A stretch of DNA of 64,000 bases from Microgenomates group bacterium (GTDB lineage Bacteria; Patescibacteriota; Microgenomatia; UBA12405). The position numbers and the translations under genes are program-made. Location of the stretch: the NCBI GenBank assembly GCA_049303675.1, contig JBAQNJ010000001.1, forward strand, positions 536,711 to 600,710, read 5' to 3'. This document shows positions 35,517 through 49,844 of this stretch, in pieces; the first letter of the stretch is position 1; each line of letters starts with the position of its first letter. The notes below the pieces were generated by a model. The model did not search any database. It was not told the origin of the DNA and saw nothing but the letters and a program-made list of their open reading frames with translations.

Positions 35517-36374
35517 ATGAATGTAATGAAATTCCGCCCCCTATTTTATCTTGTTTCCAGTTTCCTGTTACTAGTTTCTGCATTTTCTATTGCCAAATGG
35601 GGATTTCGCCTCTCCTCCGATTTTACCGGCGGCTCGGTCTGGGAAATTCAATTTAACCAAGCACCTGATATCAGTTCAGTCAACCAAGTTTTTGCCGATC
35701 AAAAAATAGACCTTTCCAGCCAACAAATTGACCAAAACAAATTGACTCTCCATTTTTCCCATATCTCCCATCCTCAAAAAGAAGTACTAGACCAGAAAAT
35801 AAAAACCATCGATCCCAAATTCACTGAATTAAAGTTCGAAACTACTGGTCCAATTTTAGGCAAGGAGCTGATGCGCAAGACCATCATCGCTATTATTCTA
35901 TCTTCATTTGCTCTGCTAATTTTTATTGGCTCCAAATTTAGTGACTTTTCCTTTGGTGTTTCCGCAGTATTGGCCATGTTACACGATGCTTTTATTCTAC
36001 TCGGTGCCTTTTCCCTTCTGGGACACTTTTTCGGGGCGCAGCTTGATTCTCTTTTTGTAACGGCACTGTTGACCACACTCTCCGCCTCAGTTCATGACAC
36101 AGTTGTTACCTTTGACCGTATTCGTGAATTACGCCGGAAAAATTTCAAAATAGATTGGGAAAATCTCGCCAATCAGGCAGTTTCTGAGGTTATTGTCCGC
36201 TCTATCAACAATTCTATGACTATTATTTTTATGTTGTTGTCTCTAGTTATGTTGGGTGGAGCTATTACCCGCTGGTTTGCCCTAGCTTTACTTATTGGTG
36301 TAATTTGTGGCACTTATTCTAGTACCGGTGTCGCCATTCCCTTAGTTCTGTTTTTCAAGAAAAATAAAAAATAA
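35517..36374 (+). CDS. secF: protein translocase subunit SecF
   Basis: 285 aa. The SecF N-terminus is DFTGGSVWEIQF, followed by a six-TM C-terminal domain. Confidence 0.9.
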   Translation: MNVMKFRPLFYLVSSFLLLVSAFSIAKWGFRLSSDFTGGSVWEIQFNQAPDISSVNQVFADQKIDLSSQQIDQNKLTLHFSHISHPQKEVLDQKIKTIDPKFTELKFETTGPILGKELMRKTIIAIILSSFALLIFIGSKFSDFSFGVSAVLAMLHDAFILLGAFSLLGHFFGAQLDSLFVTALLTTLSASVHDTVVTFDRIRELRRKNFKIDWENLANQAVSEVIVRSINNSMTIIFMLLSLVMLGGAITRWFALALLIGVICGTYSSTGVAIPLVLFFKKNKK

Positions 36375-36980: not shown

Positions 36981-38317
36981 GCCATATCTCTAATCTTCTG
37001 AAGTAGCACTTCTCTCACATTCAAACTCACATCTTTTTCTACTTCTTCAAACAGAGCATCCAGCACTTCACCCACTTTTCGGCTCGGTTTAATATTTAGA
37101 GTTTCCATTACATCCAGCCCATCTACTTTTAGATCTTTGACCGAAAAAGGTTGTTTTTGCACTTCGACAAATCGTTTTTTGAGTAGTTCCCAGCGCCAGC
37201 TCGTTTCCTTAGCCCCGCTGCCTATCCTATCAGCCCGCCGCAGGTCAATCATCTCCTCTAGGTATTCTGGTGTCACATTGCGAATTAGGCGTCGTACCGC
37301 GCTATCAGTTTGTAGTTCCGTAGCCGTAAACATATGCCATCGCACCAGTCTAAATAATTTATCTAATTCTTTATTAGACAGTCTTAATCTTTTACCAATT
37401 TTATTGGCAATTCTACTGCCAATAATGTCGTGATTATGAAAAGTATTAATGCCATTTATTGTTTTCATCACTACCGGCTTGCCTATATCGTGAATCAGTG
37501 TCGCCAATCTAGTGATTGGATCATTAGTTTGGCAATTTCGCAGTGCCTCGAGGCTGTGGGTGAAGACATCGTATATATGGTGACCTCGCTGTTTCATTCC
37601 TTCCCCCACCAAAATTTCTGGCATAATTTCCGCCAACAATCCGGCATTTTTCAGCATCTTAATTCCATCTACAGCCTGATCACTCGCCAATATTTTAAAC
37701 AATTCATCTCGCACCCGCTCCGCTGCAATCTTATTAATTAATGGGGCATTATTTTGGATGGCTCCAAACGTTTTTTCTTCTATTATAAATTCAATTTGGC
37801 AGGCGATACGGATCGCCCGCATCATTCGCAGGGCATCTTCCTTAAATCTCTCCTCTGGATTTCCCACCGCCCGAATAATTTTATTTTTAAGATCATTTTG
37901 CCCATCATATGGGTCAATAATTCGTAATTCGTAATTCGTAATTCGTAATTCCAACGCGATAGCGTTGACCGTAAAATCTCTCCTCTCTAAATCCTCTTCA
38001 ATTGTCTTTCCCCACTCCACCTTGTCCGGATGTCGATTATCACTATATTCCCGCTCCGTGCGATAAGTGGTTATTTCAAAAATCTCCCCGTCTGGATTAA
38101 CTATACTAAATGTCCCATAGTCATTCTCGCAAAAACTATTTTTCGGGAAAATCTTTTTCATTTCCTCGGGAGTGAGGTTGGTGGCAAAATCCCAATCTTT
38201 TACCTCTCGTCCTAGCATCAAATCTCTTACCGCCCCTCCCACCACAAAAATCTCAGATTTATTATCTGAGAATTTTTTCATAACCTTAGTTACTTTCTCT
38301 GGCAATTTCATTTCCAT
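36977..38317 (-). CDS. cca: CCA-adding tRNA nucleotidyltransferase with HD domain
   Basis: 446 aa. Pol-beta NTase head (VVGGAVRDLMLG...DWDFAT) plus HD domain (LIHDIGKP). Confidence 0.85.
   Translation of the reverse strand: MEMKLPEKVTKVMKKFSDNKSEIFVVGGAVRDLMLGREVKDWDFATNLTPEEMKKIFPKNSFCENDYGTFSIVNPDGEIFEITTYRTEREYSDNRHPDKVEWGKTIEEDLERRDFTVNAIALELRITNYELRIIDPYDGQNDLKNKIIRAVGNPEERFKEDALRMMRAIRIACQIEFIIEEKTFGAIQNNAPLINKIAAERVRDELFKILASDQAVDGIKMLKNAGLLAEIMPEILVGEGMKQRGHHIYDVFTHSLEALRNCQTNDPITRLATLIHDIGKPVVMKTINGINTFHNHDIIGSRIANKIGKRLRLSNKELDKLFRLVRWHMFTATELQTDSAVRRLIRNVTPEYLEEMIDLRRADRIGSGAKETSWRWELLKKRFVEVQKQPFSVKDLKVDGLDVMETLNIKPSRKVGEVLDALFEEVEKDVSLNVREVLLQKIRDMA
37919..37950. repeat. heptanucleotide tandem repeat (aattcgt) x4.5 inside the cca CDS
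   Basis: aattcgtaattcgtaattcgtaattcgtaatt encodes the peptide repeat ELRITNYELRI. The same heptamer arrays occur upstream of recA and miaA. Confidence 0.8.
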
Positions 38318-38338
38318 TCTCTATTTTACCCTATTCCA

Positions 38339-38860
38339 TCATTTCTTTCTCCTCGTCAACAACACCGCATAGGGTACATCATCTCCTTTTTGTCTCAATG
38401 CGTCTGTCAGTGTCGTCGTTTCAAATAATTTATCTGCCCCAGCATCGACCTTCAGCAAAGTTCCACTTTCTACATCTCGAATAATTGCCACTGCGTGGCC
38501 ATCTCTTCCTCTACTTGATATTACCATTGCTCCAGTAATATTATTTTCCTTCAAAGTATTTTCCACTTCGGTCAAAATACCCTCACCACCACAAGTTATA
38601 TTAAATCCACGCGCTACCACTAGATCAGACTCTTCGATTATTTCATGATCCCATCTTTTTGGATCTAGTTGACCCGCTATTTTCCTGCGACTAACGGCAT
38701 AAACTTTATCCGAGTTTCCCCCAAGTGTCACTGCCGCCACTTCAATACAGCCGTCTCGTCTTCGTGCCGCACAAAATATACTTATGGTTTCAAAAACAGG
38801 ACCAACTATCTCACCAACACTTGCCATGTTTATTATCTCATTCATCGCCAATACTATCAC
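38339..38860 (-). CDS. hypothetical protein
   Basis: 173 aa. There is a weak resemblance to the PPC/DUF296 family, not confidently assigned. Confidence 0.4.
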   Translation of the reverse strand: MIVLAMNEIINMASVGEIVGPVFETISIFCAARRRDGCIEVAAVTLGGNSDKVYAVSRRKIAGQLDPKRWDHEIIEESDLVVARGFNITCGGEGILTEVENTLKENNITGAMVISSRGRDGHAVAIIRDVESGTLLKVDAGADKLFETTTLTDALRQKGDDVPYAVLLTRRKK

Positions 38861-38932
38861 AAAATAATAAATATATTGATATATTAATAGTCAGGATCTA
38901 CAATACAGCTAAATTATATTTTAAATACATAT

Positions 38933-39208
38933 ATGGCAGGTAAAAAAGGACCCAGAGTTGAAAGTTCACAAATTAGAGCAGTTGGTGCAACTATTGGTAA
39001 AAATGGTCAAGTTGAAAGTATTTCTACCGTGATTCGCTCCACTTCCCTTGAAGCCGAGAACGCTACCCTAGACCTTTTACACCAAATGGGTATTACCTCT
39101 AGACCAATAGAACGCAGTAAAAATAATGGTAAATCATTTGCCCCAGGCCAAAACATGAGTCAAGCGGATTGGGACAAGATTTTCAAAAAAGGTCAATCAC
39201 AAAATTAG
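38933..39208 (+). CDS. hypothetical protein
   Basis: 91-aa ORF followed by a strong terminator. Confidence 0.4.
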   Translation: MAGKKGPRVESSQIRAVGATIGKNGQVESISTVIRSTSLEAENATLDLLHQMGITSRPIERSKNNGKSFAPGQNMSQADWDKIFKKGQSQN

Positions 39209-39227
39209 AACTATATTTCCTACCAAA

Positions 39228-39258
39228 AACCCCTCCGAAAGCTTTCGGAGGGGTTTTT
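39228..39258. terminator. bidirectional rho-independent terminator
   Basis: AAAACCCCTCCGAAAGCTTTCGGAGGGGTTTTT is a perfect GC hairpin with flanking A and T tracts between convergent genes. Confidence 0.7.
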
Positions 39259-39276
39259 ATTTTAATGTAATTAAAA

Positions 39277-39543
39277 TTACATCTGTGGCTTGTCAGGTCG
39301 AGGTAGGGCTTCCTTGACGGCGATATTTCGGCCATCTTGTTCGGAGCCATCCAGAGCAGCCATGGCTGCTTGGGCTTCTTCCTCAGTCTCAAATTCCACA
39401 AAGGCAAAGCCTTTGCTTCTGTGAGAGAATTTATCAAATACTATGTTTGCCGAAATAACCTTACCGTACGCAGAAAAAATCTGTGTCAGCTGGTCATCGG
39501 TCATGTTGAAGGAAAGATTTCCTATAAAAAGCTTTTTTGCCAT
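39277..39543 (-). CDS. RRM-type RNA-binding protein
   Basis: 88 aa. The RNP2 motif is LFIGNL, and the RNP1 motif is KGFAFVEF. Confidence 0.85.
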   Translation of the reverse strand: MAKKLFIGNLSFNMTDDQLTQIFSAYGKVISANIVFDKFSHRSKGFAFVEFETEEEAQAAMAALDGSEQDGRNIAVKEALPRPDKPQM

Positions 39544-39640
39544 TATTTTTGCCCAAACTTGGGCGTTTTAACCTTATATAATACGACCAAGATTAAGGTC
39601 AGAACCCCTTGATCAACAAAAGTATAACATATAATAGCTT

Positions 39641-41242
39641 GTGGACAAGAAAATAAATTTATTATCACCAATTGTAATTAGTAGCCAAACACTATCCCAG
39701 TTAGTGCCAACTCTAGTTCACAATCGTTCCATAACCGATTTCGATGAATTTATCAATCCACCCTATCCCAAATTAAAACTAACTCTAAAACCAGCCATCA
39801 ATCTAATAAATAAAATTATAAAATCACGTAAAAATATCCTTATTTACGGGGATTACGATGTCGACGGCATTACTGCCACTGCCGTACTTTGGCAGGCAAT
39901 TTACAAAAATTATCCGAACGTCACCCCCTTTGTTCCCCATCGTCAACGTGATGGTTATGGTATCAAGGCCGCCTCATTTTTTCGTTTCCAGCAGGAGAAA
40001 AACATTCAATTTGATCTGTTAATTACTGTCGACAACGGTATCGTGGCCGACAAAGAATTGGCCAAAATCAAGTCCAAACAGCCGATAAAAATAATTGTTA
40101 CCGATCATCATCTAGGTAACGTCAAATTAGAATCTGCCGATTGCATTGTCCACAATGTCTTAATATCAGGTGCTGGAGTATCTTGGTTTCTAGCCAAAGA
40201 ATTGGATCCCAGTGCTGATTTGGGGTTGGCTGCCCTAGGTAGTGTGGCTGACTGTCTACCACTCACTGGTGTCAATCGTTCTCTGGTCGTTCATGGTCTA
40301 GCCCAAATAAATTCCACGCCCTCCCTTGGTCTCCAGAAGCTAATTCAAATTTCTGGTATCCACCATCCAGTTTCTGTCTATGAATTGGGTTTTCTTATCG
40401 GTCCACGGATAAATGCAATTGGCCGGCTCTCCGATCCCACCGATGCCTTGCGACTTTTATGTAGTCAAAACAACCTTCAAGCCTCACGTTATGCCAAGTC
40501 GCTCAATGATTTTAATCAAGACCGCCAAGTCATCCAAAAAGATTCACTTGAGCAGGTTGAATTATCAATAAGTAAGGGCGAGTCTCGTGCTCGCCCCAAC
40601 CAAAAAATCATCTTTGTCTCTGGTCCATATAATGCCGGAATCATTGGTCTAATTGCCGGTCGACTCACCGGAAAATATTATTTGCCTTCAATTGTGATTA
40701 GTGTCGATGGCGATATCGCCAAGGGCTCCTGTCGCTCTATTCCCGAACTAAATATTATTGAATCTCTCCGCCATCATTCTGATTTGTTTATTGATTTAGG
40801 GGGCCACTCCGGTGCGGCAGGCTTTAGTATTTTAACCAAAAACATCAATAAACTAGAGAAATCCATACTGAAAACTGTTAACTCCAAACTCAACAAATTG
40901 AATTTAATGCCCCATCTTGACGTTGATTTACAAATGGATTTATCTGTAGTCAATACCAAAACCATCAAATCAATTCAGCAGTTGGCTCCTTTTGGTATTG
41001 GCAACCCCGAGCCATTATTTTTATTCAAAGATCTAAATATTCAAAATATCCGAACCATCGGCCAAACTAATGATCACCTCAAACTAAAATTAAATAATAT
41101 CGATGCCATTGCCTTTAAAAAAGGGGAGTTAGTCCACAAATTAAAAGTTGGCGATAGCCTCGACGTTATCGCCAGTTTGTCAATCAACGAATGGAACAAT
41201 GTTAGCTCCCCTCAGTTGATAATTAAAGAAATTATCATATAA
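39641..41242 (+). CDS. recJ: single-stranded-DNA-specific exonuclease RecJ
   Basis: 533 aa, GTG start. The sequence carries DHH family motifs (IYGDYDVDGITA, VTDHH) and a DHHA1 region (GGHSGAAG). Confidence 0.88.
   Translation: MDKKINLLSPIVISSQTLSQLVPTLVHNRSITDFDEFINPPYPKLKLTLKPAINLINKIIKSRKNILIYGDYDVDGITATAVLWQAIYKNYPNVTPFVPHRQRDGYGIKAASFFRFQQEKNIQFDLLITVDNGIVADKELAKIKSKQPIKIIVTDHHLGNVKLESADCIVHNVLISGAGVSWFLAKELDPSADLGLAALGSVADCLPLTGVNRSLVVHGLAQINSTPSLGLQKLIQISGIHHPVSVYELGFLIGPRINAIGRLSDPTDALRLLCSQNNLQASRYAKSLNDFNQDRQVIQKDSLEQVELSISKGESRARPNQKIIFVSGPYNAGIIGLIAGRLTGKYYLPSIVISVDGDIAKGSCRSIPELNIIESLRHHSDLFIDLGGHSGAAGFSILTKNINKLEKSILKTVNSKLNKLNLMPHLDVDLQMDLSVVNTKTIKSIQQLAPFGIGNPEPLFLFKDLNIQNIRTIGQTNDHLKLKLNNIDAIAFKKGELVHKLKVGDSLDVIASLSINEWNNVSSPQLIIKEIII
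41210..41235. repeat. 26-bp direct repeat (copy 1, recJ 3' end)
   Basis: cctcagttgataattaaagaaattat is 23/26 identical to 41598-41623. Confidence 0.65.
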
Positions 41243-41243
41243 T

Positions 41244-41576
41244 ATGAACTATATGACAAAGAGATACGATGTAGTTGCCATTGGACATCTACACCAACAA
41301 ATTGTTCCACATGATTTTAATATTATCGCTGGAATGAGATACCCCGACGTCGGTATTGAAGTTAGTGATATTGGTTTAATTAGGCTAGATAAGAGAATCA
41401 GAGTTGCCAGTGTCAAGAGACTTGAAAATGATGGGCACTTCGAAGTACGACGTGGTAAATTAGGAAAAATTACTCTTCCTCCCCCTCGCACCTACGAGGG
41501 ACGAATCGAATTTCTTAGTCCAGATGAGTCCGTTGTCTCAATTACTTTTCCAAGAAAAACTGTCAAAGAAGTCTAA
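41244..41576 (+). CDS. hypothetical protein within a direct-repeat-flanked cassette
   Basis: 110 aa with no recognised domain. Flanked by 26-bp direct repeats that copy the recJ 3' end. Confidence 0.45.
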   Translation: MNYMTKRYDVVAIGHLHQQIVPHDFNIIAGMRYPDVGIEVSDIGLIRLDKRIRVASVKRLENDGHFEVRRGKLGKITLPPPRTYEGRIEFLSPDESVVSITFPRKTVKEV

Positions 41577-41597
41577 TGGAAATCAAACTCCATTATT

Positions 41598-41623
41598 CCT
41601 CAGCTTATAATTAAAGAAATAAT
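41598..41623. repeat. 26-bp direct repeat (copy 2)
   Basis: cctcagcttataattaaagaaataat is a non-coding copy of the recJ terminal codons. Confidence 0.65.
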
Positions 41624-41643
41624 ATTTTAAATAAATTTGGCAC

Positions 41644-41699
41644 CCTCCTTGTCAAGGGAGGGGGATGTCACGACTAATGTCGTGACAAGGGGCTGGGTT
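41644..41699 (+). repeat. structured hairpin repeat element, copy a
   Basis: ccctccttgtcaagggaggg, then the TGTCACGAC-TAAT-GTCGTGACA hairpin, then aggggctgggtt. Same architecture as copies at 44372, 45485, 48028, 53591 and 63388. Confidence 0.75.
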
Positions 41700-41716
41700 A
41701 AATATATAATTCCTCT

Positions 41717-43468
41717 ATGAATCGTAGCAAAACTATCGAGTGTTTGGTCCTTGTCGGTCAAACCGTCAAATTGCAGGGTTGGGTGGCCAATATTCGTGAT
41801 CATGGTCAATTAGCTTTTATTGATTTACGTGATTGGTTTGGCACAGTTCAAATCGTCACCAATAGGGAGATTGACTTTGGTAAAGAATGGGTCATCGAGG
41901 TCGAGGGTCTGGTCAAAAATCGTGATCCAAAATCAGTCAACACCAAAATACCCACAGGTTCAATCGAAATAGAGGCGACTCGGATCACTATCTTGAACAA
42001 ATCTGAGGTCTCTCCCTTTCCACTCGACACCGATGGCACCGAACAGGACGAAAACTTGCGTCTCAAATACCGTTATCTTGACTTGCGACGGACTCGACTA
42101 GCCAATATTATTCAAAAAAAACACAAATATATTTTAGCTGTCCGTAATTGGATGGACAACGCCGGTTTTACCGAAATTATCACCCCTCTTCTGACCACTA
42201 GTTCTCCTGAGGGTGCCCGTGATTTTCTGATTCCCTCGCGGATTCATCAAGGTAAATTTTTTGTTCTCCCTCAGGCTCCCCAGCAATTCAAACAATTACT
42301 CATGGTTGGCGGTATTGATCGATATTTTCAAATTGCTCCTTGTGCCCGTGATGAGGATCCTCGGGCTGATCGCCATGCTGGAGTCTTTTATCAAATCGAT
42401 ATCGAAATCAGTTTTCCCACTATTGATATTATTTTTTCCACTGCCGAGAATCTGCTCCGTGACACTATTTCCACCATTGCCCCCCAAAAGAAAATTACCA
42501 CTTTCCCTTTCCCTCGGATTTCTCACACCGATGCCCTGAATCGCTATGGCTCCGACAAGCCAGATATTCGTTTTGGCCTCGAGCTTCAGGATGTCACCTC
42601 CATATTAAAAAATAAAACCGAATTTAATGTCTTTAACAATGCAGAAATTATAAAAACAATAGTAGTAACCGGTGGTGGTGAATTTTCCAAAGCCCAAATC
42701 AATACTTTGGAGTTTGCCGCCAAAGAAAAGGGAGCCAAGGGGCTAGCCTATACCAAGGTTACCCAGAATGGTTTTGATACTGGTATTTCCAAATTCATTG
42801 AATCAACAAAAAATGATTTAATCAATTCTACAAAAGCACAAGAAGGGGACCTCTTAATTTTTGTCGCCGATAATTCAAAGACAGTCAACAAATCACTTGG
42901 TCATGTCCGCAATCTCTTGGGCACAATGCTAAATTTAATTGACCCAAATCTCCTCTCATTTGCTTGGATCACTGGTTTTCCTTTTTACGAAATCAATGAT
43001 GAGGGTATATTGGATTTTGGTCACAACCCTTTTTCTATGCCAGTCGGTGGCATCGATGCTCTTAACTGTAACGATCCCTTATCTATCGAGTCCCATCAAT
43101 ATGATTTGACTCTCAATGGTTTCGAGTTGGCCTCTGGCAGTATTCGCAATCACGAACCTGAGACTTTAGTCAAAGCCTTCGAAATAGTCGGTTATGGCCG
43201 CGACGAAGTCATTCGTAAATTTGGTGGCCTCTACAACGCTTTTCACTATGGCGCCCCACCCCACGGTGGCTGGGCTATTGGTTTGGATCGGCTCTTAATG
43301 CTCTTGCTTGATGAGCCCAATATTCGCGATATCTACGCTTTTCCTCTCAATTCCAATGGCATCGATGTCCTGATGGGCGCCCCGAGCGTTGTCGACGAGC
43401 GGCAACTATCCGATGTTGGTATCAAATTAATCCATGAAGACAAAATTAAAAAACCTGCCCAAAAATAA
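41717..43468 (+). CDS. aspS: aspartate--tRNA ligase
   Basis: 583 aa. Anticodon-binding OB fold, class II motifs ([20 protein letters not shown]) and a GAD insertion. Confidence 0.95.
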
Positions 43469-44363
43469 TCAGCTTTTATTTTGGCTATTATCAACGGTTA
43501 TCTTGCTATCTAGTTTTTTAATATTTTTTTTATACAAATCGCCACTAGCAGTCAATTCTCCTGTCTTTGCACCCATTTCTCTCTACCAGCATCCACTTAT
43601 CCCCCATGTTAATGCCACTACTAATCCTCACTTGTTAGCCAAAAATTATATTTTAATTGATATCGCCACCAACACTATTTTATTATCTCAAAACCCCCAT
43701 GGGCGAATTTATCCGGCTTCTACCACCAAGTTAGCTACCGCCCTGACTGCCCTCAATATCTATCCTCTCGACGAAGTAGTCAATATTGGGGCCACTTATG
43801 CCGAGGGTAAAGTTATGGAATTGAAAAGCAGCGAAAATATCACCATCCGTTCACTAGTCACCGCCCTCTTAGTCTATTCCGCCAACGACTCTGCCTACAA
43901 TTTAGCCAGTCATCATCAACTAGGTGTTGCCGGATTTATCAAAGAAATGAATTCAATCGCTACAAAATATAATTTATCGGACACCCATTTTGTCAATTAT
44001 GATGGCATCCATTCCGATAATCACTACAGTTCAGTTTGGGACTTATCCCAGTTAGGCCGACTGGCCATCAAGAATCAAATTATTCGAGATACAGTCAAAA
44101 GTAAAAACATTACAGTTACCGACACTAGTGGCAAAATCGTTCATCTCCTCGAGTCCACCAACGAGCTACTCGGCGTTATCCCTGAGATAGAGGGTCTCAA
44201 GACCGGTTGGACACCCGAGGCCGGTGGTTGTTTTGTCGCTCTAATCAATATTAACGGTCACGAATTAATTAGTGTAGTTGCCCAAAGTGATGATCGTTTT
44301 GGTGATACTACCAAGATTGTTTCTTGGGCCAAAGACAACATCTCTTGGCAATCCTATAAATAA
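43434..44363 (+). CDS. D-alanyl-D-alanine carboxypeptidase (peptidase S11, PBP5-like)
   Basis: N-terminal TM anchor. The SxxK motif is ASTTK, the SxN motif is SAND, and a KTG-like triad (KTGWT) is present. Confidence 0.8.
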
Positions 44364-44371
44364 TTTGTGCA

Positions 44372-44421
44372 TTTCCCTTTCTTCAAGGGGAGATCCCGAC
44401 TTTATGTCGGGAGAGGGGTTT
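44372..44421 (+). repeat. structured hairpin repeat element, copy b
   Basis: ttccctttcttcaaggggaga, then the TCCCGAC-TTTAT-GTCGGGA hairpin, then gaggggttt. Lies between convergent genes. Confidence 0.75.
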
Positions 44422-44423
44422 AA

Positions 44424-45461
44424 TTATTTTATATAACTATCCTTTACTGCCGTCACATAGGCGGCAAACTTACCATCGCCTTCAAACACATAAATTGGTT
44501 GTAAATAATTTGTTAGGCTAATTGGCTCAAAATAAGCCAAATATATGTTTCGTATCGCCACATTATTGGCCACCACATCCGATGCTGGCCAATAGTTCCC
44601 TGACTTTAGGTCATTAAATGCTTCCTCAGCTGTTTTTATAGGATAAGTAGAATATATCTCTCGGTCTATGTTGGCATATTTATAATTTACTTCGACTACT
44701 TTTCTCCCCTCCGTTTGTGAGCCAGTAACTAGCACCGACACCGATGCACCATTAATATCTGTCGACATTATTTTCATATTGTCGGCAATAACTTTTCTAA
44801 AGAAGTCTACCTTAACAATATTTGCCTCGGACAAGGATGAGACCGATTTTAGTCCCTCAAATCCTATTTTCCAAAAGCTAACTTTAGCATCCCCTTCGAC
44901 TAAATCAGTCGGGAATTTACTTCCTCCTGACAAATATCCCTTGGCAATATTAACCGCCTCTTCCTTAGTGGGCATCTTTTCCGGATTCAGCAATAGTTGG
45001 TCACTTTCATACGGGTATTTAAGGCTAAAACTGCCATCCAATACATTCATAGTCAGTGTCAAGTTCAGGCTATCATTTTTGAATTCATAGACCCCATATT
45101 TTACTTCACTTGGCTTACCCACAAATCCGAGGTCTCTGGCAGTAATCGTATCCTGATCTAAGGCCAAAAAAGTATTATCCGGTCTAGTAATTACAAACAC
45201 CCTCGCTTGATCTTTGTAGACTGGAAACTTGTCGCTGGCCAGCTCAGTCGTAAAATTTTTCTTTTCAAATTTTTTCTCAGGGAAAACCGTCTTGGGCAAC
45301 AATCCAAATTTTACATCGGGGGGAGTATAGGGTGGATGGGCTCGGACATAGGCCGCAATCCCCATCCCAATCAACATGTACAATCCTGTAAAAATAGCAA
45401 TTCCCACTCCTCCGTATTTTATTATTTTCCGACTAACATAAGCTGTGTGCGTCAAAGACAT
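44424..45461 (-). CDS. hypothetical membrane-anchored protein
   Basis: 345 aa, one N-terminal TM helix then a large extracytoplasmic domain. No confident family. Confidence 0.45.
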   Translation of the reverse strand: MSLTHTAYVSRKIIKYGGVGIAIFTGLYMLIGMGIAAYVRAHPPYTPPDVKFGLLPKTVFPEKKFEKKNFTTELASDKFPVYKDQARVFVITRPDNTFLALDQDTITARDLGFVGKPSEVKYGVYEFKNDSLNLTLTMNVLDGSFSLKYPYESDQLLLNPEKMPTKEEAVNIAKGYLSGGSKFPTDLVEGDAKVSFWKIGFEGLKSVSSLSEANIVKVDFFRKVIADNMKIMSTDINGASVSVLVTGSQTEGRKVVEVNYKYANIDREIYSTYPIKTAEEAFNDLKSGNYWPASDVVANNVAIRNIYLAYFEPISLTNYLQPIYVFEGDGKFAAYVTAVKDSYIK

Positions 45462-45484
45462 AAAATATTCTACATTATTTTAAG

Positions 45485-45516
45485 TCTCCCTTGTTAAAGG
45501 GAGATTTAGAGGGATT
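45485..45516 (+). repeat. structured hairpin repeat element, copy c
   Basis: tctcccttgttaaagggaga plus agagggattgaa. The ends are identical to copy f at 48028-48093. Confidence 0.7.
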
Positions 45517-45519
45517 GAA

Positions 45520-46959
45520 ATGCTAAAATATCCCATGTCTTCTACTACTGTTCGTACCCGTATTGCGCCTAGCCCCACTGGTGAATATCATATTGGTCAT
45601 CTTCGCACCTGTCTTTACGACTATGCCCTAGCTCGCCAAAGTGGCGGTCAGTTTGTCATTCGTATTGAGGACACCGACCAAAAAAGATTTGTCCTCGGTG
45701 CTACCGAGAAAATTTTAGAGGTAATCAAAGATTATGGTCTCACTTGGGACGAAGGTCCTGATGTTGGTGGTCCCTATGCTCCCTATATCCAGACCCAACG
45801 TCTGTCCACCTATCAACCGATAGTCGACGAACTAGTCAAAAAAGGCCATGCATATCACTGTTTTTGCAGCCAAGAGACCCTCGACCAGATGCGTGAAGTC
45901 CAAAAAGCTGCCAAAAAAATACCCAAGTATGACCGTCGTTGTCTCAAACTGACTCCAGAGGAAATTAAGACCAAGATAAACAATGGTGAGCAGTCTGTTA
46001 TCCGCATGCGTATTCCAGATCGTGAGACCATCGAATTTACCGATCTTATTCGTGGCAAAATAAAATTTAACTCGAGTGATATCGACGATCAGGTACTTAT
46101 AAAATCAAATGGCATTCCCACCTATCACTTTGCCGTGGTGGTCGATGACCATCTCATGAACATTACTCATATTTTTAGGGGTGAGGAGTGGATCACCTCT
46201 ACCCCCAAACAAATTTTACTTTATCGTTTTATGGGTTGGGATGTCCCTCTCTTTGCTCACTTGACGGTTCTGCTCGATCCGGGTGGACAGAAAAAAATGA
46301 GCAAGCGTAGCGGTTCTGTTTCCGCTCGTTCATTCTTGGATGACGGTTATTTGCCCGAAGCTATGCTAAATTTTCTGATGCTACTAGGGTGGAACTCCGG
46401 CACGGAAAAAGAGATATTCTCCCTCGAAGAATTTGTCAAAGAATTCAGCCTCGATCATTTACACAAAAAATCTCCAGTTTTTGATCGCCAAAAATTAGAT
46501 TATTTTAACGGATTATATATTCGTCGGTTATCTGACGAAAAATTATTTGCTTATTTCAAAAATTTTTTACCCTCAGCCAGCGACGAACAAGTAAAAATAT
46601 TAGCTCCAGTCTTAAAGGAACGAATCGTCAAATTTTCCGATTTAAAAGAATCACTTAAATTTTTATTTGAAGACGTTGTCTACGACAAAGAATTATTACT
46701 CAAGAAGGGGACTAGTGTCGAAGTTGCTCGCGATATGTTGACTCAGACAAAAAATGTTTTTATAGATTTTACAGATTTACAGCCCAAGATAGACAGTTTA
46801 ATTGCTGATAATAATTGGAGCAAGGGCGAATACTTTATGGTACTCAGAGTGGCTATCTATGGTTCTGCTTTTACTCCCCCAGTGGTCGAATGTCTACCCG
46901 CTCTGGGTCCAGAAAAATCCATTCACAAATTAGATCTGGCCATCAATTTGCTAAAATAA
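45520..46959 (+). CDS. gltX: glutamate--tRNA ligase
   Basis: 479 aa. The HIGH motif is PSPTGEYHIGHLRT, and the KMSKS motif is KMSKRSGS. Confidence 0.92.
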   Translation: MLKYPMSSTTVRTRIAPSPTGEYHIGHLRTCLYDYALARQSGGQFVIRIEDTDQKRFVLGATEKILEVIKDYGLTWDEGPDVGGPYAPYIQTQRLSTYQPIVDELVKKGHAYHCFCSQETLDQMREVQKAAKKIPKYDRRCLKLTPEEIKTKINNGEQSVIRMRIPDRETIEFTDLIRGKIKFNSSDIDDQVLIKSNGIPTYHFAVVVDDHLMNITHIFRGEEWITSTPKQILLYRFMGWDVPLFAHLTVLLDPGGQKKMSKRSGSVSARSFLDDGYLPEAMLNFLMLLGWNSGTEKEIFSLEEFVKEFSLDHLHKKSPVFDRQKLDYFNGLYIRRLSDEKLFAYFKNFLPSASDEQVKILAPVLKERIVKFSDLKESLKFLFEDVVYDKELLLKKGTSVEVARDMLTQTKNVFIDFTDLQPKIDSLIADNNWSKGEYFMVLRVAIYGSAFTPPVVECLPALGPEKSIHKLDLAINLLK

Positions 46960-46962
46960 ATT

Positions 46963-47697
46963 GTGTTTTTATTTTTAGCCCTATTATTTTTATTTTCCTC
47001 TCCCGTTTTTGCTACACCCATAATTAAAATTACCAATTTTTCCTCCAACTCTTTACCTGAATGGATCGAAATTCACAATGAGACTGACAATTTAATTGAT
47101 TTAACTGGCTGGAAAATAGGCGATAGCAATCCTACACCAGAATACGATATCTCATTATCTGGCTGTTTGTCGGAAAATTCTTATCTTACTGTTTACCAAC
47201 AGTCAGCCTTATTGAACAACGATGGTGATACTATATCTTTGTTTGACCAAAATAATATATTAATTGATCAGTTGGTCTATTCAGTAGGCAAAACGGATAG
47301 TACTCAAAGATCAGACAATACTTGTGTTCCTTCACCAACGCCCACTCTAACCCCTACCGCCACATCAATTCCACCCACCAATACTCCTATTCCCACTGTC
47401 ACCAATACCCCAACAACCACCCCCACCTCATCAGCTACTCCCACTCCCACCGCCACTATTACCCCCAAGCCGACTCTTACCCCTACCCCCACCCCGGAAC
47501 CCACAGTCGTCATGGAGCCCACCCCCACCGATTTACCCGATCAACCCATGGTTTTAGCCAGTACTGACCTCAACATCACTCCTACCCCCGCCCTCAAAAC
47601 TTCATTTTTCACTCCCACCACTATCTCCACTCTGGCCATTGGCCTTGGTCTTCTGCTCTTGGTCACCCCCTTAATTATGCAAAAGTTTAAGAGATGA
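46963..47697 (+). CDS. lamin-tail-domain (LTD) protein with Thr/Pro-rich linker and C-terminal TM anchor
   Basis: Signal peptide. EWIEIHNETDNLIDLTGWKIGD...GDTISLFD matches the LTD pattern, then a TPTPT... linker of about 60 aa and a terminal hydrophobic helix plus KFKR. Confidence 0.65.
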   Translation: MFLFLALLFLFSSPVFATPIIKITNFSSNSLPEWIEIHNETDNLIDLTGWKIGDSNPTPEYDISLSGCLSENSYLTVYQQSALLNNDGDTISLFDQNNILIDQLVYSVGKTDSTQRSDNTCVPSPTPTLTPTATSIPPTNTPIPTVTNTPTTTPTSSATPTPTATITPKPTLTPTPTPEPTVVMEPTPTDLPDQPMVLASTDLNITPTPALKTSFFTPTTISTLAIGLGLLLLVTPLIMQKFKR

Positions 47698-48068
47698 AAT
47701 TATCATCATATCTCAAATTATTACCCTCCATTATCTGGATGTGTTTTATTTTTTTTCTCTCTTCCCTGTCCACCTCATCTATTCATGGCACCTTCAATCA
47801 GCGTTTCCTCATTCTCAAATCCTTTCATCTAATAGAGTATGCCGTGTTGGCCATCCTCATCTATTTACCAATTCAAAAAATACCCCAATCTATTCTTATT
47901 TCCTATCTCTATGCCATCACCGATGAAATCCATCAACACTTTGTCACTGGTCGTACCAGCAAATTTTCCGACACCCTAATAGATTTGATTGGAATTACCC
48001 TCGGAATAATTATTATAAAAAAACTATTCTCCCTTGTTAAAGGCGTGCGGTCCCAGAAGTGGGAGTGA
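47694..48068 (+). CDS. VanZ-like family membrane protein
   Basis: 124 aa, 4 TM helices. ITDEIHQHFVTGRTSKFSDTLIDLIG is the VanZ signature. The last roughly 12 codons are encoded by repeat copy f. Confidence 0.7.
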   Translation: MKLSSYLKLLPSIIWMCFIFFLSSLSTSSIHGTFNQRFLILKSFHLIEYAVLAILIYLPIQKIPQSILISYLYAITDEIHQHFVTGRTSKFSDTLIDLIGITLGIIIIKKLFSLVKGVRSQKWE

Positions 48069-48093
48069 TACGGCGTAGCCGAGAGGGATTGAA
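48028..48093 (+). repeat. structured hairpin repeat element, copy f (expanded), overlapping the VanZ 3' end
   Basis: tctcccttgttaaagg, a 38-nt insert, then agagggattgaa. The ends are identical to copy c. Confidence 0.65.
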
Positions 48094-48109
48094 TTTGCTA
48101 CACTGAATT

Positions 48110-48952
48110 GTGTTCAAATTTCTCAAACTATATTTCCTGCCCCATCCCGACAACAATCACAAGGCCTATCTCATTCAGCCAGGGTTTATTGGTGTCTTAA
48201 TCGCTGTCTATCTCCTCAACCAGTCATTTATCAAATCCTTTACTATTCTTCGCCCTGGAGTACTCGGTTATTCCTCAGAAATAACTGTTCAAAAAGTCAT
48301 AGACCAAACTAATTTGCTTCGCAAGGAAGCGGGTCTACCTCGTCTAGTTTACAATCCCATCCTATCCCAATCCGCCGCCAGCAAAGCCGCCGATATGTTT
48401 GCCGCCAATTATTGGGCTCACAATTCGCCCAGTGGTCGCACCCCTTGGGATTTTTTCAAAGCTGCCGGTTACAAATATTCCCTTGCTGGCGAAAACCTCG
48501 CCAAGGACTTTTATGACACCGATTCGATGATGAAAGCTTGGATGAATTCACCGACACACAGGGACAATATTGTTAACAGTAAATACAAAGAAATTGGTAT
48601 TGGTGTGGTCAATGGCGTCCTCGGTGGTGTCAAAACCACCCTCGTCGTCCAGCATTTTGGTACCCCCCAAAGTGGAGTTGTCTATAGTGCCACCACTCAA
48701 GAGCCGGAAATTGTCTCCCCAGTCAACGACGTGGCTCCCAGCTCTCGACCCCTAGTTAGTCCTCTGGCCATCAGCCAAATAGTTGGATTACTTATGTTTG
48801 GGTTAATCATCATTACTTTAATTATTGATATTTATCATTCCCTCCAATTCAAGCATCATCGTCTTAGCGGTTCCTCACTTAGCCATGCCGGCTTTTTACT
48901 AGTTATTCTCATGCTCTTAATATTTACGAGGCAGGGGAGTATTCTATTCTAA
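48110..48952 (+). CDS. CAP/SCP domain protein (YkwD-like) with flanking TM segments
   Basis: The sequence LLRKEAGLPRLVYNPILSQSAASKAADM...YWAHNSPSG...GENLA...W..S..HRDNI matches the CAP domain consensus. Confidence 0.8.
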   Translation: MFKFLKLYFLPHPDNNHKAYLIQPGFIGVLIAVYLLNQSFIKSFTILRPGVLGYSSEITVQKVIDQTNLLRKEAGLPRLVYNPILSQSAASKAADMFAANYWAHNSPSGRTPWDFFKAAGYKYSLAGENLAKDFYDTDSMMKAWMNSPTHRDNIVNSKYKEIGIGVVNGVLGGVKTTLVVQHFGTPQSGVVYSATTQEPEIVSPVNDVAPSSRPLVSPLAISQIVGLLMFGLIIITLIIDIYHSLQFKHHRLSGSSLSHAGFLLVILMLLIFTRQGSILF

Positions 48953-49197
48953 TGAAACAAAAACTCGATTATCTCTTAGTGTTTTTACTTTTTTCTTTTG
49001 GATTTTGTCTTTATCTTTATTTTTCCTACAATGGTCATTTACAGCGCAATGTTATTTACGTTACCGGTGGCTTATATTTTCTTTGGAGTCTCTGGCACCA
49101 CTATCGTCTTGGCGACCTCCACTTGTCCATTATTATCGAATATCTAGCCATCATCTCCCTCGGATTACTAGTTCTCTCTTCAACTTTTGTATTTTGA
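48952..49197 (+). CDS. small hypothetical membrane protein
   Basis: 81 aa with two hydrophobic helices. The 3' end overlaps convergent trmD. Confidence 0.35.
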   Translation: MKQKLDYLLVFLLFSFGFCLYLYFSYNGHLQRNVIYVTGGLYFLWSLWHHYRLGDLHLSIIIEYLAIISLGLLVLSSTFVF

Positions 49198-49825
49198 ACT
49201 TATTTATTCTCACTGGGTCTCCACTTAGTAGTTCCTCAGGTACTTTTTGTCCCTCATACTCCGCTGGTCTAGTGTATTGAGGATACTCGATATAGCCTTC
49301 ACTCGAATGACTTTCTTCCTTACTCGAATCATCTTTTCCGAGGACTCCCTTTAACAATCTAGTTACACTATCAATCATCACCATTGCTGGAATTTCCCCA
49401 CCAGTTAGGACATAATCACCAATCGATATTTCTTCGTCTACCAGACTCGATACCCGTTCATCAAATCCCTCGTAGTGGCCACAAATAATAATCAAATTTT
49501 CATATTGCCCCAATCTTTCCGCATCTTGTTGCGTAAACCTTTTCCCTCGCGCCGAAGTTAATATTATTCTTGTTTTTTCTTTAACTCGTAACTTATCACT
49601 CGTAACTTCAGTGATTGCCTTCGCAATCACGTCGACTCTTATCAACATCCCCACTCCACCACCATAAGGTCGATCATCCACTGCCCCATAATTATTCCAT
49701 GCCCACTGGCGCATATCATGGGTATTTATTTCGACAATTTTTTTATCCATTGCTTTTTTTATCATTGACTCCCCAAACACTCCCTCAAACATTTTCGGGA
49801 ACAATGTCACAATATCAAATTTCAT
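49151..49825 (-). CDS. trmD: tRNA (guanine37-N1)-methyltransferase
   Basis: 224 aa. MKFDIVTLFPKMFE...DDRPYGGGVGM matches the TrmD N-terminus. Confidence 0.92.
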   Translation of the reverse strand: MKFDIVTLFPKMFEGVFGESMIKKAMDKKIVEINTHDMRQWAWNNYGAVDDRPYGGGVGMLIRVDVIAKAITEVTSDKLRVKEKTRIILTSARGKRFTQQDAERLGQYENLIIICGHYEGFDERVSSLVDEEISIGDYVLTGGEIPAMVMIDSVTRLLKGVLGKDDSSKEESHSSEGYIEYPQYTRPAEYEGQKVPEELLSGDPVRINKFKIQKLKRELVIRGR

Positions 49826-49844
49826 GGAATATTATACCAACTTA

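Follow-up and report, generated by a model that had tools for sequence, protein, structure and literature searches.

The six repeated elements of the window (the whole stretch of 64,000 nucleotides that was analysed) are probably dispersed class II "potential intrastrand triplex" DNA repeats of the BoxC/PIT/TMECO kind described in E. coli. By the comparative evidence below they would be selfish and linked in orientation to chromosome polarity, and not terminators, riboswitches or Shine-Dalgarno-sequestering switches. Elements of this kind (BoxC/PIT/TM) have already been described, which the earlier note on this DNA had missed. In the fold that we propose, based on covariation and on the biophysics of the E. 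coli element, the first two arms of the G-rich strand would pair as a Watson-Crick hairpin when that strand is single-stranded. The 3' tail would then fold into the major groove of the hairpin, antiparallel to the purine arm, with G.G-C, A.A-T and T.A-T triads. Loop 2 would consist either of 2–5 nt or of a T and a self-closing GC-rich mini-hairpin; the latter would hold the ends of the loop together, so that the fold-back is still permitted.

Architecture of the six copies

All six copies read on the + strand, at most 1–2 nt from where the earlier note had placed them. Their parts are as follows (Y arm, pyrimidine arm; R arm, purine arm).

Copy a, 41643–41699, + strand, 18 nt 5' of the aspS ATG: hairpin 1 with Y arm CCCTCCTT (41643–41650), loop GTCA (41651–41654) and R arm AGGGAGGG (41655–41662); hairpin 2 TGTCACGAC/TAAT/GTCGTGACA (41666–41687); putative third-strand tail GGGG(C)TGGGTT (41689–41699).
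Copy b, 44372–44421, + strand, occupying the whole gap between the convergent dac-like and 345-aa ORFs: hairpin 1 with Y arm TTTCCCTTT (44372–44380), loop CTTC (44381–44384) and R arm AAGGGGAGA (44385–44393); T (44394); hairpin 2 CCCGAC/TTTAT/GTCGGG (44395–44411); tail AGAGGGGTT(T) (44412–44421).
Copy c, 45485–45516, + strand, a minimal form between the divergent 345-aa ORF and gltX: hairpin 1 with Y arm TCTCCCTT (45485–45492), loop GTTA (45493–45496) and R arm AAGGGAGA (45497–45504); loop 2 TTT (45505–45507); tail AGAGGGATT (45508–45516).
Copy d, 48027–48089, + strand, a disrupted relative of copy c at the 3' end of the VanZ-like ORF: Y arm TCTCCCTT (48027–48034), loop GTTA (48035–48038) and truncated R arm AAGG (48039–48042); a 38-nt insert (48043–48080) in place of the remaining purine arm, with mini-hairpins TCCCA/GAAG/TGGGA (48050–48063) and CGGC/GTA/GCCG (48070–48080); tail AGAGGGATT (48081–48089).
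Copy e, 53592–53647, + strand, between the convergent NADAR and YbaK-like ORFs: hairpin 1 with Y arm TCTCCCTTT (53592–53600), loop TTC (53601–53603) and R arm AAGGGGAGA (53604–53612); T (53613); hairpin 2 GGTCCT/11-nt loop/AGGACC (53614–53636); tail AGAGGGGTT(TT) (53637–53647).
Copy f, 63388–63424, + strand, a minimal form of copy a between tRNA-Gln and a small + strand ORF: hairpin 1 with Y arm CCCCTCCTT (63388–63396), loop GTCA (63397–63400) and R arm AGGGAGGGG (63401–63409); loop 2 TCA (63410–63412); tail GGGGTGGGT(TTT) (63413–63424).

The class II definition entails, from 5' to 3' on one strand, a pyrimidine arm, a purine arm (6–15 nt, at most one Watson-Crick mismatch between the two) and a reverse-Hoogsteen (G/A/T) arm that runs antiparallel to the purine arm, with at most one triad mismatch. 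Copies a, b, c, e and f have this arm order in full, and their first two arms pair over 8–9 bp. Copy d keeps the outer blocks only, and its purine arm is broken after 4 nt. The earlier note had credited every copy with a conserved first hairpin; that of copy d is not intact, with the 38-nt insert following AAGG. The first stem that it gave, CTCCCTT/AAGGGAG, is not that of copies a and f, whose arm is CCC(C)TCCTT/AGGGAGGG(G). Loop 1 is 3–4 nt in all copies, while loop 2 is 3 nt in copies c and f and 26, 18 and 24 nt in copies a, b and e, where it takes the form of a closed mini-hairpin. The predicted fold of copy a is hairpins 1 and 2 (z = -4.1). Hairpin 1 contains one T.G wobble in each of copies a, e and f, two in copy b and none in copy c; because copies a, b, e and f need such a wobble, their hairpin 1 folds better on the + strand. 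T.G wobbles are commoner in RNA helices and so count against a DNA fold, although decay of C to T would give the same outcome.

The related pairs within the window, lettered in positional order, are a–f, b–e and c–d (not a–e, c–f and b–d, as had been proposed), and members of a pair have identical ends of 16–21 nt. The common ends of copies c and d are 16 nt at the 5' side and 12 nt at the 3' side. The placement described in the earlier note is correct: copies a and c are found just 5' of aspS and gltX, b and e separate convergent ORFs, and d and e extend into the 3' ends of coding sequences. The VanZ-like ORF takes its final 14 codons and its stop from copy d, and the reverse complement of copy e encodes C-terminal residues of the YbaK-like ORF. 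The ORF at 41244–41576 was considered as a RecJ duplicate and was ruled out, as just 33 nt of the recJ 3' end are repeated there.

The architecture of the elements is non-random; the short words within them, taken alone, are not. CTCCCTT occurs 13 times in the window (9.3 expected), and GAGGGGTT with at most one mismatch occurs 32 times (47.6 expected), neither being enriched. Exact consensus searches with the words of the earlier note returned copy c only, and the family was not among the 20 largest direct-repeat families of a generic repeat finder. Judged by 7–8 nt words, the copies could pass for ordinary hairpins of independent origin whose likeness is due to chance in an AT-rich genome. 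We give this reading practically no weight, as the search for whole elements speaks against it. A strict search (pyrimidine/purine hairpin of at least 7 bp followed by a triad-compatible tail) recovered copies a, c, e and f on the + strand of the window and none on the - strand; copy b was missed solely through a filter of at least four C in the arm, and copy d is degenerate. Block-shuffled windows (n = 100) gave a mean of 0.05 strict matches and a maximum of 1, to be set against 4–6 elements observed, so the claim of six copies far from chance holds. The identical ends within pairs and the presence of the same 18-mer in multiple copies in dozens of related genomes also weigh against chance.

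The mirror relation of the tail to the purine arm

As a rule, the tail mirrors the hairpin 1 purine arm: G stands opposite G, and either A or T opposite A, a pattern characteristic of class II purine-motif intrastrand triplexes. This rule is kept by copies b (a perfect mirror with 0 mismatches), c (8/8 triads), e (9/9) and f (9/9). The tail of copy a is triad-compatible with one bulged C. In copy d the relation is disrupted, and the triplex potential is limited to 5–6 nt (CTCCC / GGGAG at 48060–48064 / GAGGG). The short run of triads in copy d and the bulge in copy a point against the triplex reading. Beyond the window, about 170 copies in assemblies of Candidatus Shapirobacteria and other CPR keep the rule as well. 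Matches to the class II order numbered 4 + 138 + 29 (171 in total) and those to the mirror-image class I order 0 + 3 + 0, in an element search that presupposes pyrimidine/purine hairpins and whose largest subfamily is ascertained by its own 18-mer. A permissive search (6-nt arms, mismatches allowed) returned mostly noise, and ambiguity of register makes its count of T.G versus C.A meaningless.

An independent set of 153 pyrimidine/purine hairpins was taken from loci not picked by the seed word, and the tail was sought within 45 nt. A perfect triad tail followed 55 of the 153, compared to 1.6 (maximum 7) with shuffled downstream sequence. On the same hairpins, a direct repeat of the purine arm accounted for 11 tails and Watson-Crick complementarity to the 5' arm for 10. 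The direct-repeat relation was rejected, as it fits far worse than the mirror rule. The alternative fold proposed in the earlier note, in which the tail pairs with the 5' CTCCC, fares no better (10/153 Watson-Crick versus 55/153 mirror). For asymmetric arms the triad tail was present in 37 of 102 hairpins, compared to 0.8 in shuffled sequence, 6 direct repeats and 7 Watson-Crick tails. The tail base opposite G was G in 425 instances, and that opposite A was A in 133 and T in 148 (independent set).

The arms themselves vary. The strict set holds 38 distinct purine arms in 52 arm/tail combinations, and the rule is kept throughout. At the gltX site, the copy in the related locus L136 is changed at one position in all three strands (T to C in the pyrimidine arm, A to G in the purine arm and A to G in the tail). 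Long distinct linkers contain a Watson-Crick stem of at least 4 bp in 81% of cases (18% when shuffled) and of at least 5 bp in 44% (3% when shuffled), and the commonest loops of hairpin 2 are the triloops C-GAA-G, C-GCA-G and C-GTA-G. The reading of the earlier note, a modular family with selection on structure, is supported, the family being a single homologous one. Varied subfamilies with covarying arms are comparative evidence, at the level of sequence, for selection on the putative three-stranded fold itself.

A role in RNA was weighed against the DNA fold. The elements could be intrinsic or bidirectional terminators, 3' hairpins that stabilise mRNA, or a switch in which the Shine-Dalgarno-like GAGGG tail and the AAGGGAG arm compete for CUCCC. 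The + strand RNA folds are stable and the G.U pairs of hairpin 1 exist on that strand only; copies b and e lie between convergent genes; T is found after the tails at +1 (92% of copies) and at +2 (66%); and the GAGGG of copy c is 6 nt 5' of an ATG. The positions of copies b and e are those of bidirectional terminators and the tails end in T runs, both of which count against a DNA reading. We nonetheless consider an RNA role improbable. The tail mirrors the purine arm (55 mirror versus 10 Watson-Crick tails), the orientation to flanking genes is not fixed (<E< being the commonest class), intragenic copies are present in both orientations, and a purine tail of 8–11 nt parts hairpin 2 from the U-run. 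A terminator scan of 38000–57999 flagged none of the six copies, and the six sites were without an Rfam 15 match, both at the gathering threshold and at E<=5. The structured RNA or terminator module of the earlier note is disfavoured on these same grounds: mixed orientation, intragenic copies, no flag in the terminator scan and no Rfam match. The orthologues of gltX and aspS have a TAAAAT -10 box 6–7 nt before the ATG, and the sequence suggests that these mRNAs are leaderless, starting downstream of the element. The PIT elements of E. coli are reported to have neither promoter nor terminator activity (Hoyne & Maher 2002, cited in PMC4666352).

The four G tracts GGG-A-GGG ... GGG-T-GGG raise a different prospect, that of a G-quadruplex (G4) competing with hairpin 1 as a switch. 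Kaplan et al. 2016 (cited in PMC8044849) put forward such a competition for the element of E. coli, and in K+ the archaeal relatives of the motif switch back and forth between triplex and G4 (PMC8044849). Four or more G3 tracts, counted from the purine arm to the tail, are present in copies a and f and in nearly all of the CCCTCC/GGGAGGG subfamily. Among 55 copies of the remaining subfamilies just 4 could form a G4, and by inspection the G tracts of copies b, c, d and e number fewer than four; all of these still obey the mirror rule. NMR of the E. coli oligonucleotide favoured triplex over G4 (PMC4666352). We thus regard the switch as very unlikely, and G4 was rejected as a general explanation because only one subfamily is capable of it.

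Sites on double-stranded DNA for a protein (a nucleoid, promoter or origin-associated factor), conserved for binding and not for a single-strand fold, would fit some of the locations. Hexamers resembling a -10 box follow a few bases after copies a, c, d and f, copies cluster by the DnaA-box-like TTGTGGAAAA upstream of dnaA in several loci (L017, L040, L079 and L006), and the 18-mer core is identical across distant CPR lineages. The arms vary freely (38 purine arms) with the three-way relation kept, which is the opposite of what sequence-specific binding predicts, and mirror symmetry is not that of dimeric DNA-binding proteins. The intragenic copies and those at convergent stop codons are also devoid of promoter context. 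This explanation seems to us highly improbable, and we return to the intrastrand triplex repeat as the preferred one.

Turnover and strand polarity in related genomes

The 18-nt core of copy f, CTCCTTGTCAAGGGAGGG, occurs 90 times in the 83 stretches of the genome collection that were retrieved with it (L003–L085). These genomes are mostly Candidatus Shapirobacteria and other CPR assemblies, and the core is followed by GGG(G)TGGGTT in nearly all occurrences. It had no match in a viral contig collection. The family is multi-copy in many related genomes.

Comparison of syntenic sites documents gain and loss. The site upstream of aspS is without an element in all listed syntenic relatives but one (L099), which has a b/e-type copy there. 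At the site of copy b, the stop codons in close syntenic relatives are 0–20 nt apart and the element is absent. The CAT..ATG spacer at gltX is 35–45 nt in relatives, and the window has the same spacer with an insertion of about 34 nt, copy c; in L136 a diverged copy is at the identical position. No target duplication accompanies this clean insertion. The vanZ 3' end and the vanZ-CAP spacer of relatives are unrelated in sequence, and copy d takes the place of the vanZ C-terminus. Relatives lack the block of NADAR, copy e and the YbaK-like gene (53101–54070) and have 29–82 nt between the glycosyltransferase and nucleotidyl-transferase genes. In related genomes, copies are also found in frame inside conserved domains of LigA, RecG and MiaA, read as about 12 residues, (Y)PSLSREGxGVGF. 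Taken together, these sequence comparisons indicate that the elements act as selfish DNA of fast turnover, with gains and losses both between genes and at the 3' ends of genes. Element sites would accordingly mark intergenic regions and gene ends that are variable between close relatives.

The earlier note had suggested a mobile REP/MITE-like element. The turnover between syntenic relatives agrees with mobility, while the repeats and duplications of MITEs were not found. A Pfam scan of the 36 ORFs of the window detected no transposase or integrase, and the flanks of the copies have no conserved or duplicated bases beyond the 3' T run. As neither a transposase nor terminal inverted repeats nor target-site duplications turned up, the term mobile draws here only on presence and absence.

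The orientation of the elements follows the chromosome strand. The G-rich strand of the element is the C-rich strand by GC skew in 58 of 62 loci, with 4 opposite (p = 2.6e-13), and 28 of 29 copies at the aspS locus are on one strand. With respect to flanking genes the orientation is mixed (<E< 25, <E> 19, >E< 12 and >E> 12), in comparison data that are nearly all metagenome assemblies with crude ORF calls for gene context. Gene orientation relative to skew is 52:48 and is uninformative for the leading strand. The C-rich strand carries the S10-spc-alpha cluster, but three stable-RNA genes are found on the G-rich one, and at four loci there is no flip of the GC skew within 4 kb of dnaA. We infer that this polarity ties the elements to replication or to single-stranded DNA and not to transcription. 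Orientation would be set by the strand asymmetry of the chromosome, and the polarity would fit either selection against exposure of the fold-forming strand in replication or strand-specific insertion.

It is conceivable, though we hold it to be unlikely, that the triplex repeats of CPR are an active mobile class that spreads in the form of folded single-stranded DNA. An enzyme would then recognise the fold-back triplex, with or without the mini-hairpin, and a link between the replication fork and the insertion or survival of copies would account for the strand polarity of about 92%. Copies would be small and stop-free enough to enter essential genes in frame. If this is true, the three-way covariation would be the first comparative proof of a selected intrastrand DNA triplex in living cells.

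Comparison with known repeat families

The BoxC/PIT/TM intrastrand triplex repeats have been known from E. coli for about 30 years. To our knowledge they have no known function there, and there is no evidence of importance of the triplex in vivo. The BoxC/PIT/TMECO elements of E. coli and other Proteobacteria (Hoyne & Maher 2000, 2002; Holder et al. 2015, PMC4666352) have the same three-arm order as the present copies, the same triad rules (G.G-C, A.A-T, T.A-T), arms of 8–9 nt and a loop 1 of 3–4 nt. They are likewise multi-copy, in variable intergenic regions, and have one subfamily with possible G4. The commonest short loop 2 here, TTA, is that of TMECO type A. The single-stranded TMECO oligonucleotide forms a triplex by CD and NMR, with a Tm of 70–82 C (PMC4666352). 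In vivo DMS footprinting of the E. coli element gave no protection and the duplex wins when the complement is present, both of which count against the triplex reading (PMC4666352). The purine-motif triplex is reported as not forming in RNA, which speaks against a structured RNA here (PMC4666352).

There are also differences. The TMECO pattern itself, CCCTCNCCC N3-6 GGGNGAGGG N3 GGGNGAGGG, was matched neither in the window nor in any of the 149 loci. Loop 2 of the CPR elements often carries a GC-rich mini-hairpin of 10–28 nt, unlike that of TMECO; with the loop limits used earlier, 1–6 nt (ITxF) and 0–10 nt (Hoyne & Maher), copies c and f are within and copies a, b and e are beyond. TMECO was reported as always intergenic and without strand bias (we read Table 1 as 8 leading and 5 lagging single copies; PMC4666352), whereas the CPR copies are strongly polar with GC skew and are present in frame inside genes as well. 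The host, too, is different: it belongs to a CPR/Patescibacteria lineage, and its genome measures about 1 Mb.

The G-rich repeats of Methanomicrobiaceae with an adjacent C-tract (PMC8044849) are likewise interspersed and intergenic, and their single strand can adopt a GC hairpin to which a G-rich third strand adds in antiparallel orientation, a form that is in equilibrium with a G4. These archaeal repeats have the opposite, class I order, with the third strand and purine arm 5' of the C-tract. That order is essentially absent here (3 versus 171), and a hairpin within the loop is not described for them (PMC8044849).

Short, structured, multi-copy and mostly extragenic elements are also seen in the REP/BIME and RAYT system and in PATE/IS200-IS605-type elements, which are thought to act as folded single-stranded DNA and whose orientation can follow replication. 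REPs are imperfect palindromes of a simple kind, marked by a conserved 5' tetranucleotide of the GTAG type and accompanied by a RAYT gene. The present copies differ in that they have no conserved 5' flank, no transposase among the 36 ORFs of the window, and a third, mirror-image arm as the defining part. MITEs have terminal inverted repeats and target-site duplications, neither of which is seen here. The Rickettsia palindromic elements also insert into genes in frame, which recalls the copies within LigA, RecG and MiaA of related genomes and copies d and e of the window, which provide C-terminal codons of two ORFs. At about 150 bp, the Rickettsia elements are roughly four times longer than the copies here (PMC10969869).

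Rho-independent terminators are likewise GC-rich hairpins with a T run, and two copies lie between convergent genes. In the elements, unlike in terminators, the T run is not next to the hairpin, the orientation is independent of the upstream gene, and the tail has no terminator role. The clear terminator of the window, at 39225–39258, looks quite unlike the copies. For annotation, we suggest that such sites not be called terminators, small RNAs or riboswitches. Compared to the E. coli elements, the CPR copies have a strong orientation bias with strand asymmetry that is not apparent in E. coli. The form with a hairpin in loop 2 and the in-frame copies in essential genes lie outside the limits of earlier surveys, and the family has therefore probably been under-counted.

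Six copies and a large family in other genomes

The element reads, 5' to 3', as a pyrimidine arm, loop 1, a purine arm, loop 2 and a tail that forms a third arm. All six copies named in the earlier note are present in the window:

Repeat copies in the window
41643-41699, +: copy a (paired with f)
44372-44421, +: copy b (paired with e)
45485-45516, +: copy c (paired with d)
48027-48089, +: copy d (paired with c)
53592-53647, +: copy e (paired with b)
63388-63424, +: copy f (paired with a)

Copies a and f have in common CACCC(C)TCCTTGTCAAGGGAGGGG ... GGGG(C)TGGGTT, copies b and e TCCCTTT.TTCAAGGGGAGAT ... AGAGGGGTTT, which encloses different perfect hairpins, and copies c and d TCTCCCTTGTTAAAGG ... 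AGAGGGATTGAA, with a 38-nt insert in copy d in place of most of the purine arm. Given these three pairs and the damage to copy d, the pair labels and the single consensus first proposed are slightly off. Chance resemblance is excluded. The short words alone are not enriched in the window; a strict search for the architecture recovered four copies (a, c, e, f), all on the + strand, with nothing on the - strand, against a mean of 0.05 matches in 100 block-shuffles. The genes around the copies (RecJ, AspRS, D-Ala-D-Ala carboxypeptidase, GluRS, TrmD and the S10-spc-alpha ribosomal cluster) are bacterial.

Exact matches to the 18-nt core that a and f share (CTCCTTGTCAAGGGAGGG) occur in 83 genome-collection stretches, mostly of MAGs with the label Candidatus Shapirobacteria, Peribacteria, Absconditabacterales or 'Patescibacteria group', with several copies per genome. 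The core had no match in viral contigs. It is nearly always followed either by 2-5 nt and GGG(G)TGGGTTT, or by T, a GC-rich hairpin whose sequence varies, and GGGTGGGTTT. Within the 8-kb stretches around the core matches there are many more hairpins, built from other pyrimidine/purine arms and each followed by a tail of its own. Non-CPR genomes that the 18-mer matched by chance have class II triplex repeats (arm order pyrimidine, purine, third arm) of their own sequence: an alphaproteobacterial MAG (L080), Buttiauxella (L046), a deltaproteobacterial MAG (L061), Thiothrix (L077) and Abditibacteriales (L078). Loop 2 in L080 also consists of T and a GC hairpin, so the form with a hairpin in the loop occurs outside CPR bacteria as well.

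Other features of the window
4365-4407, 5785-5836, 6691-6725, 9447-9481, 9967-10019: separate family of AT-rich tandem-like repeats, AACTTTATAAACT / AACTTTTAACTTTA, just upstream of ATG codons in the ribosomal-protein cluster
20384-20422, 29107-29145, 37918-37956; 28665-28698, 35545-35578: further AT-rich intergenic families, (CAATTCGTAATT)n / (TTTCCAGTTTCC)n
31028-31304, -: RNase P RNA; the archaeal model RF00373 (107 bits, Rfam) was kept as best among related RNase P models, despite the otherwise bacterial (CPR) gene set
39225-39258: perfect 15-bp palindrome AAAAACCCCTCCGAAAGC/GCTTTCGGAGGGGTTTTT resembling a bidirectional terminator, with CCCCTCC/GGAGGGG words in its stem and without a third arm
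49845-50602, -: thymidylate kinase, seemingly split over two adjacent ORFs (91 aa, 151 aa), which may reflect a frameshift or pseudogene; residues 11-44 of the former match the Pfam model start and the latter matches the C-terminal part of the model, both below the curated cut-off

All three arms co-vary

The tail is the purine arm in reverse order, with A replaceable by T, and has no complementarity to the 5' arm:

Purine arms and their tails
CPR locus: purine arm AAGAGGGA, tail AGGGAGATT
CPR locus: purine arm AAAGGGGGA, tail AGGGGGATTT
Deltaproteobacterial MAG: purine arm AGGGAGAGGGGGA, tail AGGGGGTGAGGGT
Alphaproteobacterial MAG: purine arm AAGGGGAGG, tail GGTGGGGAT

This rule was examined on 153 strand-specific pyrimidine/purine hairpins, none selected by the core word, including 102 with asymmetric arms:

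Tail types (all hairpins; asymmetric arms)
Perfect mirror tail, triad-compatible, <=45 nt: 55/153; 37/102
The same, downstream sequence shuffled: mean 1.6, max 7; 0.8
Direct repeat of the purine arm: 11/153; 6/102
Watson-Crick paired with the 5' arm: 10/153; 7/102

The earlier note had offered pairing of the tail with the 5' arm as an alternative fold; the mirror tails outnumber such Watson-Crick tails and that pairing is not borne out. Where the purine arm has G, the tail had G 425 times and any other base 30 times; where it has A, the tail had T 148 times and A 133 times. G.G-C, A.A-T and T.A-T are precisely the triads that make up a purine-motif triple helix, in which the third strand runs antiparallel to the purine strand. 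Applied to mirror-reversed sequence, the same finder gave 3 matches for the opposite arm order (class I) versus 171 in class II order. The window copies have the class-defining features, except for loop 2 length (a, b, e) and damage (d). We infer that the property under selection is a fold-back triplex of a single G-rich DNA strand; for the a/f subfamily only, a G4 switch is possible.

The length of loop 2 is bimodal, with one class at 2-5 nt and another at about 10-28 nt. Of the 36 distinct long linkers in perfect-tail copies, 81% (18% when shuffled) contained a Watson-Crick stem of >=4 bp and 44% (3% when shuffled) one of >=5 bp. The most frequent loops of this second hairpin are C-GAA-G, C-GCA-G and C-GTA-G, types known to close very stable mini-hairpins in DNA; tetraloops of the GNRA and UNCG kinds are rare. 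One such hairpin is found with several sets of triplex arms and one arm set with several hairpins, and the modularity noticed at the outset is real. By holding its own ends together, a closed hairpin could replace a 3-nt turn. Earlier surveys limited the loop to <=6 or <=10 nt and would thus miss hairpin-in-loop forms.

Turnover and copies inside genes

About 50 syntenic metagenome contigs keep the order recJ-aspS-dac-(345-aa ORF, - strand)-gltX-LTD-vanZ-CAP...GT2-NTP transferase, with AspRS 57-79% identical to that of the window. At site a, the recJ stop runs directly to the TAAAAT -10 box and aspS ATG in nearly all relatives, and only L099 has an element, of b/e type. At site b, convergent stops lie 0-20 nt apart in close relatives, and the 60-nt gap of the window is the element. 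The spacer at site c is 35-45 nt in relatives; the window has the same spacer plus a clean insertion of ~34 nt. A diverged copy lies in L136 at exactly this insertion point, with one position altered in three strands (pyrimidine arm T->C, purine arm A->G, tail A->G) and one new tail mismatch. At site d, the element replaces C-terminal codons of a VanZ-like ORF. Site e (53101-54070) is an insertion of ~1 kb comprising a convergent pair, a NADAR gene and a YbaK/aminoacyl-tRNA-editing-domain gene, with element e between the two; every syntenic relative examined has the flanking glycosyltransferase and nucleotidyl-transferase genes side by side, 29-82 nt apart. The elements showed neither target-site duplication nor terminal inverted repeat, and a 3' T run was their only conserved flank; no transposase was found among 36 window ORFs scanned against Pfam.

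Other observations concern the same intervals. Thirty-three nt of the recJ 3' end are directly repeated (41210-41242 and 41598-41630), enclosing a segment of ~390 nt immediately upstream of copy a, with an ORF (41244-41576, 110 aa) that has no Pfam match and is not RecJ-like; the segment is missing from relatives in which recJ abuts aspS. The recJ-aspS gap of eight relatives (L097, L100, L103, L109, L110, L115, L129, L137) contains a sequence, ..GAAGCTGAGGGAAGAAA..TTAGAACCCTACAGAAG..GTGTGTCAC..GAGCACGA.., that is conserved and looks structured; a terminator hairpin comes after it, and it is probably a small RNA gene. Arrays of GGAAATTGG type occupy the convergent dac/345-aa ORF site of copy b in L089, L092 and L142. 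A TAAAAT or TATAAT hexamer 6-7 nt upstream of the aspS and gltX ATG is conserved between the window (41700-41719 and 45520-45537) and the relatives L086-L145 and hints at leaderless mRNAs; gltX would then probably start at ATG 45535, as in the NCBI record, and not at 45520.

In related genomes, copies also lie in frame within conserved domains, and Pfam matches span the element in three cases (LigA, RecG and MiaA):

Copies inside genes
L013: LigA adenylation domain
L058: RecG wedge domain
L007, L020: MiaA, same site in two genomes
L005, L016: membrane protein
L037, L034, L003, L055: further loci

Their translation gives ~12 residues, either (Y)PSLSREGxGVGF or PLLVKGGxxGGF. Orthologues paired across assemblies have the copy at the same site, and the two membrane-protein copies differ by a compensatory change in the second hairpin (GCCC/GGGC vs GTCC/GGAC). 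RNA-level roles (terminator, mRNA stabilizer or SD switch) leave the mirror tail, the mixed orientation and the genic copies unexplained, but single copies, b and e among them, may have such a role. The earlier reading of a REP/MITE-like element under selection on structure is half right; its RNA or terminator module is not supported.

Orientation tracks strand asymmetry, as compared with known triplex repeats

With elements masked in the computation of GC skew, the G-rich strand of the element is the negative-skew strand for 111 of 122 copies at the loci matched by the core, 28 of 29 in the aspS loci and all window copies. With one vote per locus (62 loci), 58 lie on the C-rich strand and 4 do not (p = 2.6e-13), and the polarity holds by subfamily (core type 66:6, others 49:5). 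Orientation relative to neighboring genes is mixed. Skew on the + strand of the window is negative for genes of both orientations (-0.12, -0.24), and the polarity is thus not a coding-strand effect. Along a 735-kb contig, core copies lie on the - strand at 72-96 kb, on the + strand at 160-168 kb and on the - strand again at 624-688 kb; replichores would be expected to give two such switches. Orientation thus tracks the compositional asymmetry of the strands, not transcription.

The leading strand is usually G-rich, and if so here, the elements lie on the leading-strand template. Selection against exposure of the fold-forming strand as template could produce the polarity, as could strand-specific insertion at the fork. 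Taken as a whole, the direction of the genes does not tell which strand leads. In the window, 62 of 78 ORFs and the S10-spc-alpha cluster lie on the C-rich strand, which would be unusual with a G-rich leading strand, and two tRNAs and the RNase P RNA lie on the G-rich strand. The skew itself is large, -0.1 to -0.5 (window, L003-L145, contigs JAQWEN010000001.1 and JBAZTV010000001.1). It keeps its sign within 4 kb on each side of dnaA (L017, L019, L040, L079), although three of these loci (L017, L040, L079), like L006, have DnaA-box-like TTGTGGAAAA sequences upstream of dnaA.

All six copies are members of a large family of structured DNA repeats with fast turnover and class II triplex architecture, a functionally unexplained kind of repeat already described and here a variant in a new lineage. 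The class II intrastrand motif was first seen in E. coli as BoxC, rediscovered by Hoyne and Maher as potential intrastrand triplex (PIT) elements and studied by Holder et al. (2015) as TMECO (PMC4666352). CD and NMR show that the E. coli element, as a single-stranded oligonucleotide, folds into a triplex of very high stability; it showed no protection in DMS footprinting in vivo and neither promoter nor terminator activity, and its loci are unusually variable among strains (PMC4666352). Purine-motif triplexes are stated not to form in RNA (PMC4666352, introduction). A class I-like counterpart is known from methanogenic archaea (PMC8044849), and the in-frame genic copies recall the Rickettsia palindromic elements (PMC10969869). 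The architecture is common to TMECO and the window copies, whereas the TMECO sequence pattern matches none of the latter. The two also differ in polarity: single TMECO copies, placed relative to oriC and dif, divide 8 leading to 5 lagging (PMC4666352 Table 1) and so show no polarity, while the copies described here are strongly polar with GC skew.
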